Below, in pieces: positions 17,791 through 25,373 of a stretch of 32,000 nucleotides of DNA. Numbering within the stretch: the first letter of the stretch is position 1; each line of letters begins with the position of its first letter. The DNA is from Adlercreutzia mucosicola DSM 19490 (GTDB taxonomy: Bacteria > Actinomycetota > Coriobacteriia > Coriobacteriales > Eggerthellaceae), in the NCBI RefSeq assembly GCF_000422625.1, contig NZ_AUGK01000003.1, forward strand, positions 178,374 to 210,373, given 5' to 3'. Below the pieces are notes generated by a model that was not told where the DNA came from, searched no databases, and was given only the letters and a program-made list of their open reading frames with translations. Made by a program: the position numbers and the translations under genes.

Positions 17791-17801
17791 GATTGCGAAA
17801 A
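17791..17801 (+). other. Candidate attL core
   Basis: GATTGCGAAAA, identical to 25363-25373 in direct orientation. Confidence 0.5.
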
Positions 17802-17980
17802 GTAGGCACCTGGGATGCGCAACATGCGAAACACTGGATAACGGGCCGGTGCTTTCACGGGTCAGCTTCGACGGGTTTTCCGCAAAAGTGGTAGAGCGGT
17901 GCGCATGCGCTTACTTTCTACCATTTCGAATCGCAAGGGCGACGGGATGCCGCCGCCGAGATTCGTTAGAGAGGTAGATT

Positions 17981-18352
17981 ATGCTCGCAAAGGTCTGTTC
18001 AGTGTTCACCGGCTTCTCCAAGGGCGACTTCGTGGCCGAGGGAGGGGAGAAGATAGACTGGTGCAACGCCGCGTTCTCCGTCCCCGGCACCGCCGACACC
18101 TTCCTGCTCAAGGTTCGCCTGGACGAGGTGGATCCCAACCGCCTCAAGCCGTACAAGGCGAATTACCTGATGGTCGATTTCCGCTACGACTCCAAGTTCC
18201 GCAACTGGAAGGGCTACATCGTGGACGTGTTCGAGACTCGCGCCCTCTTCGATGCCGCGACCGTGGACAACGACATCCCCGCCGAGCTGTTCGACGAGTC
18301 GCCCGCCGTTTCCTCCCTCAAGGCCGCGGCCGTTGCCGCCGCCTCCAAGTAG
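17981..18352 (+). CDS. Prophage protein, 123 aa (occupies the position of a gene-V-type ssDNA-binding protein; function unproven)
   Basis: RBS GAGAGG precedes the ATG. It is the first gene after the left junction. It is soluble and predicted beta-rich, with an acidic/Ala tail. The assignment is positional only. Confidence 0.6.
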   Translation: MLAKVCSVFTGFSKGDFVAEGGEKIDWCNAAFSVPGTADTFLLKVRLDEVDPNRLKPYKANYLMVDFRYDSKFRNWKGYIVDVFETRALFDAATVDNDIPAELFDESPAVSSLKAAAVAAASK

Positions 18353-18361
18353 GCGGTTCCC

Positions 18362-18604
18362 GTGGCTTCCGCGAACCCCTCGGGCGCCCTCGGCCCCTCG
18401 GCCCTCGAGTTGGCCTCCTACGTCGCCGGTTACTGGCGCGACCGCGACCGCGAAGAGGCCTATGCCGCCGTCGTGATCGGCGTCCACATCGACCAGCTCG
18501 GAAACATCGTGGGACAGTCCTACCACGTCCACGGCCCCTCCGCCGACTGGAACGACGCTCTCATGTCCGACTTGATGGCGGCCGCCGACGGGGAGGTGGC
18601 CTAG
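18362..18604 (+). CDS. Prophage hypothetical protein, 80 aa
   Basis: GTG start 10 nt after the upstream stop. Its own stop abuts the next ATG (TAGATG). Confidence 0.45.
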   Translation: MASANPSGALGPSALELASYVAGYWRDRDREEAYAAVVIGVHIDQLGNIVGQSYHVHGPSADWNDALMSDLMAAADGEVA

Positions 18605-18994
18605 ATGGACGAGCAGGCTGCCGCGGGCCTGGCCCTGGACGCCTTTTCCACTTTGGACGCACTCCGCCAGGACGTGGCCCAGATCAGGGACGTGAACCTC
18701 CAGACCTTCGATCTGCTCAACTCGCAGATTCAGAGGGTCGATGAGCAGATGGAGGCCAAGGGCCTCTCCGTCGAGGTTCCCGCCGACCCCGAGGCCCAGA
18801 ACCTCCTCCCCGGTGATTCCGCCGACTGGATGACCGAGGTTCACTCCGCGACCGAGGTTCCCGCCGAGTTCTTTTCCGATCTCATGTCCTTCCAGTACAT
18901 GCACACGGCGCTGTTCGTGTTCATGCTGCTGGCGCTCCTGCTCAACCTGGGCGCGACTCTCTGGCTTGCGTTTTCCGACAAATGGAGGTCTTAA
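18605..18994 (+). CDS. Prophage membrane protein, 129 aa (C-terminal TM helix)
   Basis: GGGGAGG RBS. Coiled N-terminal half and a C-terminal helix ALFVFMLLALLLNLGATLWLAF. Confidence 0.6.
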   Translation: MDEQAAAGLALDAFSTLDALRQDVAQIRDVNLQTFDLLNSQIQRVDEQMEAKGLSVEVPADPEAQNLLPGDSADWMTEVHSATEVPAEFFSDLMSFQYMHTALFVFMLLALLLNLGATLWLAFSDKWRS

Positions 18995-19203
18995 TGGATG
19001 CTGTTCTTAACGTTCTCGTTGTTCTGTCTCTGCTTGGCGTTGTTGCTTACGCTCTCGCTGTCTATGCGGCGCTGAAGATCGCCTTTACGTGGGCCAAGGC
19101 CCGTTGGGACGACGGCTGGGGCAAGCCGCCCCTCCTTCTCAAGTTGCCGCCCCGCGCCTTGTCGGCAGTCCTGGCTCTGGCGTTCCTGGCGGTGGTCTTG
19201 TGA
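18994..19203 (+). CDS. Prophage small membrane protein, 69 aa (two helices)
   Basis: ATG in a TAATG overlap, 5 nt after GGAGG. The ORF-track start at 18982 is in the same frame. Confidence 0.55.
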   Translation: MDAVLNVLVVLSLLGVVAYALAVYAALKIAFTWAKARWDDGWGKPPLLLKLPPRALSAVLALAFLAVVL

Positions 19204-19295
19204 GCGATGCTTGCGTCTTGGCCAACGCTTCTCTTCAGCTTTTCTCCGTTGTCTGCCTGTGCCTGATTCTCTTTCTTGAGCTTCGCTCCAGGTGA
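19200..19295 (+). CDS. Prophage 31-aa hydrophobic micro-ORF (pVII/pIX-like by size and position)
   Basis: GTG in a GTGA overlap with the upstream stop. Sequence VSDACVLANASLQLFSVVCLCLILFLELRSR. A very short ORF, so the call is weak. Confidence 0.3.
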   Translation: MSDACVLANASLQLFSVVCLCLILFLELRSR

Positions 19296-19301
19296 TCTTC
19301 G

Positions 19302-23463: not shown

Positions 23464-24669
23464 ATGAAGTTCGCGGGGATAGACATCGCCAAGCGCGAGC
23501 ACTGGATGGCCGTGGTGGACGCGGAGGGGCGCGCGGTGCTGCCTCCGACGGCCTACGCCAACGACTCGGAGGGCCTGGCCGCCATGGTGGCCGATCTGGC
23601 GTCCCTTGGCGGAGAGGTGGAGGCCGCCATGGAGTCCACGGGATGCTACTGGCGCTCGTGCCACCGGGCCCTCTCCCTCGCGGGCATCCCTGTGGCCGTG
23701 ATGAATCCCGTGCGCACCTGCGCGGCGCGGAAGTCCTCCAACCTGGGCCGCGCCAAGACCGACGCGGTGGACTGTCTCGTGATCGCCGACTTCGCGCGCA
23801 GGGAGCGCCCCGCGCCCACCGTCTCGCCCGACGGCGACCTCGCCCAGCTGCGGGAGCTGGCGCGCCTGCGCCGCTCGCTCTCGGGCGACGCCGCCCGCTG
23901 CAAGCTCCGCCTGACCGCGCTCCTCGACCAGGTGTGGCCCGAGTTCGCGCGGCTGTTCGCCGACCGCTTCTGCGGCTCGGCCCTGGCCTCCCTGCGCTGG
24001 CTTTCGGAGGGCTCGGGCGATCTGGATTCGCTGGCCGACGCCCTGGGCGGCGCCAGCCGCGGCCGCTTCGGGTCCGCCAAGGCCTCTGAGGTCGCGGCCT
24101 CGCTCTCCTCCACCTGCGGGGTGCCCGCGTCCCCAGCCCATCTGCTGGAGCTGCGCCTTCTCCTCGGCCAGCTGGACTTCTCGGCGGCCCAGATCGCCGA
24201 GGCCGATGCCGCCATGGCCCCGCTTCTTGAGTCGGCGGCCCCGACGCTTCGCACCGTCCCCGGCATCGGCCCCGCGCTCGCGTGCCAGATCGCCGCCGAG
24301 GTGGGGGACGCCTCGCGGTTCGAGTCGCCGGGCAAGCTGGTGGCGCTCGCGGGCCTCGACCCCGCGCGCTTCCAGTCGGGCGGCTTCGAGTCGGAGCGCA
24401 CGCGCATATCCAAGCGCGGGAGCGCCTACCTGCGCCGCTCCCTCTACATCGCCGCCCAGGCCGCCCTGCGCTCCGACTGCGAGTTCCGCGACTTCTACGA
24501 CCGCCTGCGCGCCCGGGGCAAGTCGCACCGCTGCGCCGTCTGCGCCGTGGCCCGCAAGATGCTCTGCGTGGTGTGGGCGCTCATGCGCTCGGGCGAGGAG
24601 TACAGCCGCGAGCGGCATTCGGCAAAGGGAGAAGCCCCCGAGGGGGCCTCTCCGGTTGAGGTTGGCTAG
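23464..24669 (+). CDS. IS110/Piv-family DEDD recombinase (transposase)
   Basis: GIDIAKREH, ESTGCYW and KTDAVDCLVIAD (RuvC-like DEDD N-domain). C-terminal Tnp domain with VPGIGPALACQIAAEVGD and RISKRGSAYLRRSLY. The ORF-track extension from 23080 overlaps rep and is rejected. Confidence 0.9.
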   Translation: MKFAGIDIAKREHWMAVVDAEGRAVLPPTAYANDSEGLAAMVADLASLGGEVEAAMESTGCYWRSCHRALSLAGIPVAVMNPVRTCAARKSSNLGRAKTDAVDCLVIADFARRERPAPTVSPDGDLAQLRELARLRRSLSGDAARCKLRLTALLDQVWPEFARLFADRFCGSALASLRWLSEGSGDLDSLADALGGASRGRFGSAKASEVAASLSSTCGVPASPAHLLELRLLLGQLDFSAAQIAEADAAMAPLLESAAPTLRTVPGIGPALACQIAAEVGDASRFESPGKLVALAGLDPARFQSGGFESERTRISKRGSAYLRRSLYIAAQAALRSDCEFRDFYDRLRARGKSHRCAVCAVARKMLCVVWALMRSGEEYSRERHSAKGEAPEGASPVEVG

Positions 24670-24989
24670 AGCTCTTGGACGAGCCAGGTTCCGGATTCTG
24701 TCTGAATGACGTTCCCCTTTACGTCCTCGATGGCGGTTACGAGGTCTTCCAGCTGGTCGGGTTCGTATACGGTCGGCAGTCCTTTGTCGAAGTAATGATA
24801 GTCATTCCACATGTCTGCGGCGCTCCTGTATTCCGTCCACTCTCCCCGGAGCTTCCCCGGGTCGACCTCCTCATCGGTGCCGTCCGCGTCATACCAGTCG
24901 ATTATGGCGGCCAGCGCGGCCTTGCTGAAGCAGTTCAGGCCCTCGTAGGCGGTCAGATCTTCGACGGTTGCAGTGATGTACAGTGCCAT
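24666..24989 (-). CDS. Acidic 107-aa protein, the only leftward gene of the insert (hypothetical)
   Basis: AAAGGGG RBS precedes ATG 24989. It is rich in Asp/Glu/Trp/Tyr. Its stop overlaps the recombinase stop (CTAG). The ORF-track start at 25073 is rejected. Confidence 0.6.
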   Translation of the reverse strand: MALYITATVEDLTAYEGLNCFSKAALAAIIDWYDADGTDEEVDPGKLRGEWTEYRSAADMWNDYHYFDKGLPTVYEPDQLEDLVTAIEDVKGNVIQTESGTWLVQEL

Positions 24990-25064
24990 GGGATGCCCCT
25001 TTCGTCCGTGGAGCCAGGCCCTCTGCCTCGCTCCTGATGGGGCGTCCGGCTCACGGGGCGGGCG

Positions 25065-25147
25065 GCGCGTCAAGGCTTCTCGGAGGAAAAGTTTTTTCCG
25101 CTGTCCTTTTGTTGAAGATGAAAAAAGTTTTCCTCGCCTTGACGCGC
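25065..25147. repeat. Long imperfect inverted repeat / hairpin in the prophage non-coding region
   Basis: GCGCGTCAAGGC (25065-25076) pairs with GCCTTGACGCGC (25136-25147). Inner arms GAGGAAAAGTTTTTTC and GAAAAAAGTTTTCCTC pair with one mismatch. Confidence 0.85.
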
Positions 25148-25301
25148 AGTTTGCTCCGTGAGATCGTGCGCTTCATCTGGTGCGATGCAGGGGGCCGTCC
25201 CCGGGCGGGAGCGATCTTTCATGTTTCGTCAACGCGGCTCTCGGGGTCATTTTCGATCCCTCGCGCTTGAAAAAAGTGCTTGACGAAATGATAGCTGGTG
25301 T

Positions 25302-25351
25302 TTCGCAATCCAGTGCCACTCTCGGTGAACTTTTCGCAATCCAGTGCCACT
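25302..25351 (+). repeat. Two perfect direct copies of a 19-mer at the prophage right end
   Basis: TTCGCAATCCAGTGCCACT occurs at 25302-25320 and 25333-25351. An inverted near-copy lies in the host-side flank at 17778-17802. Confidence 0.9.
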
Positions 25352-25362
25352 TTCGGCGACGT

Positions 25363-25373
25363 GATTGCGAAAA
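25363..25373 (+). other. Candidate attR core
   Basis: GATTGCGAAAA, identical to 17791-17801. It merges into the A-tract of the adjacent terminator. Confidence 0.5.

Follow-up and report, generated by a model that had tools for sequence, protein, structure and literature searches.

The window analyzed here, a 32,000-nucleotide (nt) stretch of the Adlercreutzia mucosicola genome in which all coordinates below are positions, carries a 7,383-nt insert (17918–25300) between two convergent host genes, which encode a kinase and a 64-amino acid (aa) DUF6724 protein. Judged from its sequence, the insert is an integrated inovirus, a genuine filamentous-phage prophage. Its phage genes run in one plus-strand train that ends with the morphogenesis NTPase Zot and the rolling-circle replication initiator Rep, and beyond them lie a candidate bridge RNA, a recombinase of the IS110 insertion sequence (IS) family, a reverse-strand open reading frame (ORF) and a large hairpin. 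We consider it quite probable that this integrated inovirus is a functional one and that its lysogeny module consists of the IS110-family recombinase and a cognate bridge RNA.

An original prediction, made from the same DNA, had already described an inovirus integrated in the chromosome of a high-G+C monoderm. That reading is sound because both Zot and Rep give clear profile matches and because relatives of the prophage are complete circular Inoviridae genomes; nine empty sites and several insertion sites agree with it. In searches of the window proteins against Pfam, PHROG and NCBIfam, the product of 21653–22270 (plus strand, 205 aa) was matched as a Zot/pI NTPase by PF05707 (E=1.5e-22; 80.5 bits, cut-off 20.3), PHROG 197 (E=1.5e-23) and PHROG 1675, and that of 22415–23233 (plus strand) as a HUH Rep by PF23343 (E=8.5e-19; 68.1 bits, cut-off 27.8) and PHROG 3419 (E=2.7e-24), both as the prediction had named them. 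The convergence of the flanking genes was also read correctly, as was a visible drop in G+C content (0.51–0.61 at 19–21 kb versus ~0.65–0.70 in the flanks), and the phage-free site that was expected in relatives exists in nine contigs. At 7,383 nt and with co-oriented genes, the insert also has the compact format of Inoviridae genomes (5–15 kb). We infer that virions are produced from it.

The prediction did not report the 1.9-kb integration module, which comprises the recombinase, the RNA and the reverse-strand ORF. The recombinase (23464–24669, plus strand, 401 aa) is an IS110-family DEDD, or bridge, recombinase: it matches PF01548 (E=4.6e-38), PF02371 (E=8.4e-28) and the NCBIfam model NF033542, “IS110 family RNA-guided transposase” (280.7 bits, cut-off 140), as well as the structures of IS621 and ISCro4 (E ~1e-30). 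Residues D7, E57, D100 and D103 are invariant in its clade, and its GID, ME and KTDAVD motifs align to ISCro4. Related loci were fetched for comparison (L001–L169; P0003-type denotes one phage type). The exact protein is found only with the phage, and homologues with 79%, 66–70% and 58% identity all stand in a phage context with one shared order: small genes, pIII-like gene, 85-aa gene, Zot, Rep, spacer with RNA, IS110 gene and reverse ORF. Across these lineages recombinase identity declines in step with that of Zot and Rep, and its synonymous divergence (dS 0.56–0.81) and nonsynonymous-to-synonymous ratio (dN/dS 0.26–0.45) resemble those of these two phage genes. The nearest non-phage IS110 proteins have at most 44% identity and belong to ordinary ~1.6-kb Coriobacteriia ISs with no phage genes nearby; a scan of species-representative genomes likewise returned only conventional IS110s at or below 44% identity, none adjoining Zot or Rep, and scans of IMG/VR with the recombinase and with its clade alignment returned no relatives. 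Because of this phage-only occurrence, the fixed gene order, the co-divergence with Zot and Rep and the distance to the next IS110s, the evidence points to the recombinase being the integrase of the phage and not a passenger.

The borders of the insert follow from a comparison of its junctions with the empty site. Searching with the DUF6724 protein yielded contigs that carry the kinase/DUF6724 spacer, and in nine related contigs the two genes are adjacent with no phage between them. The empty spacer reads …GGTGCGCATGCG(T/C)TTAC TTTT CGCAATCCAGTGCCAC…, with CGCAATCC as its right part and CGCAAT after the TTTT. The junctions of the window insert read …GCGCTTAC-TTT-CTACCATTTCG… on the left and …GATAGCTGGTG-TTT-CGCAATCC… on the right, which places the left attachment-site (attL) T-run at 17915–17917 (host …GCGCTTAC-TTT-CTACC… phage) and the right one (attR) at 25301–25303 (GGTG-TTT-CGCAAT, three T kept). 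The prediction had instead drawn the borders at 17791–25373, given a size of 7.6 kb (we measure 7.38 kb), taken an 11-nt direct repeat, GATTGCGAAAA (17791 and 25364), as the attachment site and expected a circular junction from 25373 to 17802. That repeat is host sequence present in empty sites, and the same holds for 31-nt “terminal” inverted repeats, which we rejected as phage ends since they are host repeat units found in every empty site.

With four T in the bacterial site (attB) and three each in attL and attR, conservative recombination predicts a phage attachment site (attP) of GGTG-TT-CTACC, that is, a circular junction …GATAGCTGGTG-TT-CTACCATTTCG…. Excision would accordingly be predicted to give the junction …TTGACGAAATGATAGCTGGTG-TT-CTACCATTTCGAATCG… and a restored attB, …GCGCTTACTTTTCGCAATCC… / …TTACTTTTCGCAAT…. 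We place the crossover within the T-run, where the partners would share 1–2 nt; models with a fixed CT core or a fixed TT core were rejected, as neither fits all lineages. The phage termini themselves are constant. The left end, CTACCATTTCGA (17918–17929, plus strand), which would serve as the right-donor arm and includes a −10-like TACCAT (17919–17924), is kept across the left junctions of all lineages and sites. The right end, CTTGACGAAATGATAGCTGGTG (25279–25300, plus strand), which includes a −35-like TTGACG (25280–25285) and the left-donor arm GATAGCTGGTG, is kept in all lineages.

The sequence outside these ends is the target. Two units of a host repeat, TTTCGCAATCCAGTGCCAC, stand in tandem on the plus strand at 25301–25359, an inverted copy lies at 17773–17803, and the units occur in empty sites; they belong to the target and not to the phage. 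The repeat family, ACTTTTCGCAATC[C/G]AG[C/T]GCCAC (also given as ACTTTTCGCAATCNAGNGCCAC), often forms intergenic inverted pairs 15–25 nt apart. Its units lie at 17773–17803, 25301–25328 and 25332–25359 of the window and in the left flanks of L160–L169, and the kinase/DUF6724 spacer has two or three of them depending on the strain; the phage insertion point is one unit of a repeat pair. At four of the five other left junctions, related inverted units directly precede the insertion point, and L021 has one in its right flank. Outside insertion sites the repeat was not found in the other fetched loci, and “REP-like” is meant here as dispersed over six or more loci, not hundreds.

The same phage, as identified by an identical Zot or g123 gene, occupies several chromosomal places. 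It has six different left flanks (at the kinase, YqeY, response regulator and cellulase genes and at two other places), and all six independent left junctions end in (T/A)ACTTT, one of them in ATACTTT; this junction end corresponds to the 3′ end of the 5′ loop strand of the RNA described below, AUACUUU. A second right flank, TTTCGCAATCGAG in L021, adjoins an RHS gene. In one metagenome (L001, L012) the phage sits at the YqeY site and the kinase site is empty. The P0003-type phage has at least three right flanks, all starting with TGGCTTG, and many of its ~3-kb contigs end 8–9 nt beyond the phage end, which is what is expected of an assembler when sites share only the guide-matched bases. Metagenome contigs also break within a few bases of the termini at the right end of L001 and L019, the left ends of L164 and L166 and the right ends of L152–L157 (…GCTGGTGTT; TACTTT|CTACC…; …TCTGGCTT). 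These breaks are consistent with several coexisting junction types per sample, from several sites and possibly from circular forms. Integration by XerCD would use a single dif site and no phage recombinase, and here there are six or more sites and a recombinase of the phage's own. Linkage to a tRNA gene was also rejected, as a scan of the window found no tRNA.

A 230-nt non-coding stretch lies between Rep and the recombinase gene. It contains a conserved structured RNA of ~180 nt (23247–23425, plus strand), which is a candidate bridge RNA. Aligned over the Rep–IS110 spacer of 12 lineages, it folds into a 5′ hairpin (23247–23264) followed by two modules, each of a stem, an internal loop and a distal stem. 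The first module holds the putative target-binding loop, with a 5′ strand CCGAAUACUUU (23294–23304), a distal stem (23305–23317) and a 3′ strand GUGCGAAAAG (23318–23327); the second, GAUGAGCUGGAUG… (23362–23405), is the putative donor-binding module. In the alignment, 94.9% of cells are paired versus ~44% when the partners are slid, and 12 pairs show double changes versus 4.7±1.7 in shuffles, with 0 of 500 shuffles reaching the observed value. Variation is unevenly distributed: the closing stems of the first module have an entropy of 0.00, its two loop strands are hypervariable (~1.0 bit, the most variable columns), and the second module is conserved (0.12 bit).

The variable strands follow the flanks. 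The 3′ strand of the window RNA, GUGCGAAAAG, has CTTTTCGCAC as its reverse complement, which agrees with attB aCTTTTCGCAat over 9 nt, and the left flank is matched by the 5′ strand, …AAUACUUU. When lineages are compared, the reverse-complemented 3′ strand agrees over 6–7 contiguous nt with the host DNA that starts two bases after GATAGCTGG, as seen in the window, L021, L022, L025, L027, L069, L071, L074 and L075. The matching host sequence changes from lineage to lineage: TTTCGCA in the window and L021, TGGTCA in L022, TGGTCAA in L027, TCTCTGC in L025 and L075, TGGCTTG in L069, L150 and L151, TCTGAG in L071 and TCAAGC in L074 (the attB sequences of L025 and L069 are …GCACTTTTTCTCTGC… and …TTTTTGGCTTG…). 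Non-cognate pairs of guide and site match over 1–3 nt only.

The phage ends and RNA also have counterparts in conventional IS110 elements. A covariance model of the phage RNAs finds full-length, same-strand matches directly 5′ of ~20 conventional Coriobacteriia IS110 transposases (E 1e-4 to 0.3). The ends of these elements, …CTTGACTTCATATAGCTGGT|CTCC|TATCTTTAAG… (left end TATCTT), are homologous to the phage right end CTTGACGAAATGATAGCTGGTG and, by position, to the left end CTACCATTTCG. Because the phage ends are such counterparts, the prophage is bounded by IS110 ends, with the viral genes between the left terminus and the RNA, and the reverse ORF and hairpin between the recombinase and the right terminus. 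The 3′ loop strand of the conventional elements covaries with the flank in the same register (AAAGGAG/CTCCTTT and, in L038, CAAGGAG/CTCCTTG). Their circles would give a junction promoter TTGACT-N17-TATCTT, and the inferred phage junction, TTGACG-N18-TACCAT, would bring TTGACG (25280–25285) and TACCAT (17919–17924) to a spacing of 18 nt. As a separate observation, the conventional IS110s of L039, L045, L064, L058, L044, L052 and L079 (transposase ~10001–11170) are all located at …CTCC|TTT…, which reverse-complements the Shine-Dalgarno sequence AAAGGAG, followed at several sites by CAT-containing flanks; conventional Coriobacteriia IS110s may thus target the ribosome-binding sites of genes on the opposite strand.

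Taken together, the phage most likely enters the chromosome by means of its own IS110-type recombinase, guided by a bridge RNA. Once the phage DNA is circular, as the replicative form, its right end (…TTGACG-N9-ATAGCTGGTG) would abut the left end (CTACCATTTCGA…) across a short T core, forming the donor site. The RNA, encoded between Rep and the recombinase, would be transcribed as a molecule of ~180 nt with two internal-loop modules. Through CCGAAUACUUU and GUGCGAAAAG, the first module would base-pair with both strands of the host target, …TACTT|TTCGCA…, itself part of a short intergenic repeat that is palindromic; recognition of the phage's own ends would fall to the conserved second module (GAUGAGCUGGAUG…). 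The recombinase would then exchange strands at the T-run, which would produce attL TTAC-TTT-CTACC and attR GGTG-TTT-CGCAAT. In the circle, the abutted ends would create the promoter-like TTGACG-N18-TACCAT, which points into the phage gene train and could be active there.

Several observations weigh against this proposal. Two lineages depart from the correspondence of guide and site: L082 in part, with five of six positions matching and one mismatch, and L070 fully, with an L074-type loop at an L071-type site. The L070 locus is a mosaic, and because a ~100-nt patch around the loop (L070:900–1000) follows L074 while the neighboring sequence follows L073, its loop appears to have been exchanged through recombination, probably after integration. 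On the donor side, only AGCUGG of the donor module matches the right end (AGCTGG), and for the left phage end (the right-donor arm) no convincing guide was found by eye, in the alignments or with the IS110 ends; the donor ends are invariant, so that no covariation is usable for donor-loop pairing. As a single sequence the RNA folds no more stably than shuffles (z=+0.85), for which reason its structure is argued here from comparative evidence, and Rfam holds no matching bridge-RNA family. The predicted attP junction was not found in the IMG/VR scan or in any fetched locus. The core size varies, being apparently TT in the window phage and only a single shared T in L022. Finally, a promoter scan of the linear sequence found no canonical sigma-70 site.

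Among candidates for the right-donor pairing, UUCGGAAAGG with CCATTTCGAA, GGAAAA with TTCTACC and a same-sense GGUCUCU match across the junction were each rejected as inconsistent between lineages. The Rfam search otherwise gave only spurious low-score matches (Archaea_SRP, MIR533), and these were to the hairpin near the right end.

Three other explanations could, in principle, account for much of the above. First, the insert could be an IS110 transposon expanded by cargo, the cargo being a decayed inovirus, and could move only as an IS110 circle, without virions. The homology of its ends and RNA to those of conventional IS110s would be expected under this model, large cargo-bearing IS110 elements have been described (10.64898/2026.08.14.744561), and the IMG/VR scans found no episomal copy of an IS110-bearing relative. 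We nevertheless regard it as unlikely. The morphogenesis and replication genes are all intact and are syntenic in at least four lineages, with dN/dS of 0.07–0.72; the close relatives (Zot 72–81% identical) are complete circular Inoviridae genomes from faecal samples; and a 142-nt hairpin typical of inovirus intergenic regions is retained.

Second, the IS110 gene could be an independent IS nested in a prophage whose integration takes a different course, for instance through XerCD at a dif-like site. Many inoviruses do use XerCD, and selfish and domesticated transposases are held to be indistinguishable by sequence alone (Roux et al. 2019, PMC6813254). The position and co-divergence of the gene are the same in all lineages, however, and the exact protein never occurs outside the phage context. 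The guides, moreover, match the ends of the prophage, which lie 5.4 kb upstream of the loop and 2 kb downstream of it, and not the DNA adjacent to the transposase, and the right end of the prophage is itself homologous to an IS110 right end. With six or more sites per phage type the target is not a unique dif, and neither IS110-free relatives at the same attachment site nor separate 1.5-kb IS copies were seen. This possibility therefore seems very remote.

Third, and least credible of all, the guide–flank matches could be a by-product of T-rich, repeat-rich flanks, with sites recognized by protein–DNA contacts as the first-generation Piv/IS110 literature assumed, a notion to which the T-run in every target and the poor discrimination of left-flank matches between lineages lend some color, but the right-flank 6–7-mers are lineage-specific and lie outside the T-run (TCGCA, GGTCA, CTCTGC, GGCTTG, CAAGC, CTGAG), vary together with the loop sequence against a conserved background of protein and remaining RNA, and covary in the same register in conventional ISs, and RNA guidance has been demonstrated experimentally for IS621 (PMC11208160). 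RNA-guided integration of an inovirus by its own recombinase remains the explanation we favor.

The prediction's tightly packed, same-strand train stands (17981–23233, plus strand), but its count of 13 ORFs does not; we find 10 credible phage ORFs plus the recombinase. The first, g123 (17981–18352), is tentatively a single-stranded DNA (ssDNA)-binding protein with an OB fold: it has no match among the Pfam, PHROG and NCBIfam hidden Markov models (HMMs), and its AlphaFold2 (AF2) model (mean predicted confidence, pLDDT, 66) has five beta-strands and weak Foldseek matches to SSB, RPA and PriB OB folds (E 0.01–0.08). The small acidic protein g80 (18362–18604) has homologues in L022 and L025 (45–56% identity), and none was detected in L027. 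The prediction's run of small membrane proteins is borne out by the 85-, 73-, 53- and 129-aa products: g129 (18605–18994) would be membrane-anchored at its C terminus (hydrophobic residues 93–125; 48% identity to a protein of bajarodino virus 26), the small g73 (18982–19203) has two transmembrane segments (75% identity to a protein of the same virus), and g53 (19302–19463) is a minor coat candidate.

The 52-aa major coat candidate (19487–19645) has the layout that had been described for it, a hydrophilic N terminus, a single hydrophobic helix (19–51) and a KRFSR tail, behind a strong ribosome-binding site, AAAGGAG. It is 73–82% identical to bajarodino virus proteins and matches PHROG 1859 weakly (E=0.022). 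The strong terminator placed after it is also there, as an intrinsic terminator at 19688–19720 (plus strand) with a 9-bp stem of 7 GC pairs and a T-run. Next comes the 552-aa candidate for a pIII-like adsorption protein (19734–21392, TTG start), for which a signal peptide and internal repeats had been noted; we find a signal-like helix (7–28), an acidic Gly-rich linker, a C-terminal hydrophobic segment and repeats of 42 nt and 75 nt in the gene. It has no HMM match, and its C terminus is 41–46% identical to bajarodino proteins. In public annotations of identical copies, this gene is split (at 19734–20072) into a 60-aa ORF in another frame and a shorter ORF of 377–439 aa; the long TTG-initiated reading with its signal peptide is the one we prefer. 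The 85-aa protein at the pVI position (21389–21646) has the expected membrane character, with two transmembrane segments. Unlike pI of the Ff phages, Zot is short here (205 aa) and has no transmembrane segment, and the 85-aa protein, whose gene lies directly 5′ of zot and overlaps the pIII stop, may supply the membrane part.

An inverted repeat at 22255–22313 (25 nt, 92% complementary, 9-nt loop, very GC-rich) spans the Zot stop codon 5′ of Rep and could be a terminator, an attenuator or a replication element. The reverse-strand ORF, orf107 (24666–24989, minus strand, 107 aa), is convergent with the recombinase gene, the two stops overlapping, and is kept beside it in all lineages. It has no Pfam, PHROG or NCBIfam match, only two clusters of homologues and an unreliable AF2 model (pLDDT 54). 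Its product is very acidic (23 D+E versus 6 K+R), which could hint at a DNA mimic or at a protein that regulates the direction of recombination. The intergenic imperfect hairpin of 142 nt (25036–25177), which the prediction likewise did not report, has a DNA fold of −45.8 kcal/mol (z=−7.9) with nested GGAAAAGTTTTTTCC-type palindromes, is kept in sequence in L022, L025 and L027, and is plausibly a packaging signal or origin.

If the proposal is true and the system undescribed, the locus would represent natural RNA-guided integration on the scale of a virus (7.4 kb), active in high-G+C Gram-positives and in a cultivable host. In the literature library consulted, which is incomplete, we found no paper on a bridge RNA in a filamentous phage and none on an inovirus from Adlercreutzia or from elsewhere in the Eggerthellaceae. 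Almost nothing has been characterized among the filamentous phages of Gram-positive gut Actinomycetota; for this one, the host species can be cultivated, the empty site is known exactly and multiple insertion sites are mapped. Comparison across lineages provides evidence that a viral integration address is written in an RNA loop, an unusually clear comparative case of RNA-encoded choice of attachment site and of loop swapping between phages. The question whether inovirus transposases are selfish or domesticated (PMC6813254) becomes decidable from sequence. The protein would also be a bridge recombinase that carries cargo by nature; it comes from the Eggerthellaceae, for which genetic tools are scarce, and its guide–target pairs can be read from genomes.

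The pairing of an inovirus with an IS110 transposase is already known and IS110 bridge RNAs are established, so this is not a new kind of system. What it adds, we are slightly inclined to think, is a lineage of gut Coriobacteriia inoviruses whose lysogeny is programmed by a bridge RNA, with lineage-specific loop “addresses”, exchange of ~100-nt cassettes and possibly a switch-on by the junction promoter. The closest viruses by sequence are bajarodino viruses 26 and 9 (PQ006168, PQ006132), circular Inoviridae from rodent faeces that share the structural and morphogenesis module. Zot is 81% identical in virus 26 and 72% in virus 9, structural genes are 46–82% identical (shared are the coat protein, g73, g129, g85 and the pIII C terminus), and virus 9 has a coat protein at 73% and a Rep at 50%. 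They differ in being 5.8–6.2 kb long and in lacking the IS110 gene, the bridge RNA and homologues of orf107, g123 and g80.

In Neisseria, the ~8-kb inoviruses Nf1–Nf4/MDA carry an IS110-family transposase at the end opposite the replication gene (Kawai 2005; PMC7058167) and, having neither a tyrosine nor a serine integrase, integrate at numerous copies of dRS3, a short chromosomal repeat (PMC7058167). Like the prophage here, they combine the genes of an inovirus with an IS110-family transposase at the border and insert into short repeats that are dispersed; unlike it, they inhabit a Gram-negative proteobacterial host, and dRS3 has a CT core where a different repeat with a T-run is used here. 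The likeness is one of gene content and type of target, and a bridge RNA for Nf was not described in the literature searched. The Thermus inoviruses phiOH16, Zuza8 and Zuza27 have an IS110-family transposase at one provirus end, their sibling phiOH3 lacks one, and insertion into dispersed repeats, as by the Neisseria phages, has been proposed in Thermus as well (PMC11437467). The transposase-free phiOH3 parallels the IS110-free bajarodino viruses. The Thermus phages belong to another phylum, their recombinase is only distantly similar (phage database), and neither a guide RNA nor an attachment-site analysis has been reported for them.

With IS621 and other IS110 elements (PMC11208160, PMC11208158) the prophage shares a DEDD recombinase, a two-loop RNA directly upstream of it and an intergenic palindromic target. 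In the IS621 bridge RNA, target binding belongs to the first loop and donor binding to the second; the 5′ strand runs in the same sense as the left flank, and the right flank is complementary to the 3′ strand (PMC11208160). The sense of the guide strands is the same here, and the −35-like element in the right end and the −10-like one in the left end would be placed alike. Those elements measure ~1.3 kb and have a CT core, whereas the prophage has 7.4 kb and what appears to be a T or TT core; its viral genes put 5.3 kb between left terminus and RNA, orf107 and the hairpin put 0.6 kb between the recombinase gene and the right terminus, and its putative junction promoter would read into phage genes and not directly into the RNA. 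A canonical IS (~1.2–1.6 kb) has no passengers; this 7.38-kb element has 11 other ORFs. In the cargo-expanded IS110 elements, IS110 ends and a bridge RNA also bracket kilobases of non-IS DNA. Their cargo consists mainly of resistance and plasmid genes (bioRxiv 10.64898/2026.08.14.744561); the cargo of the present element is an entire virus, in co-evolution with the recombinase.

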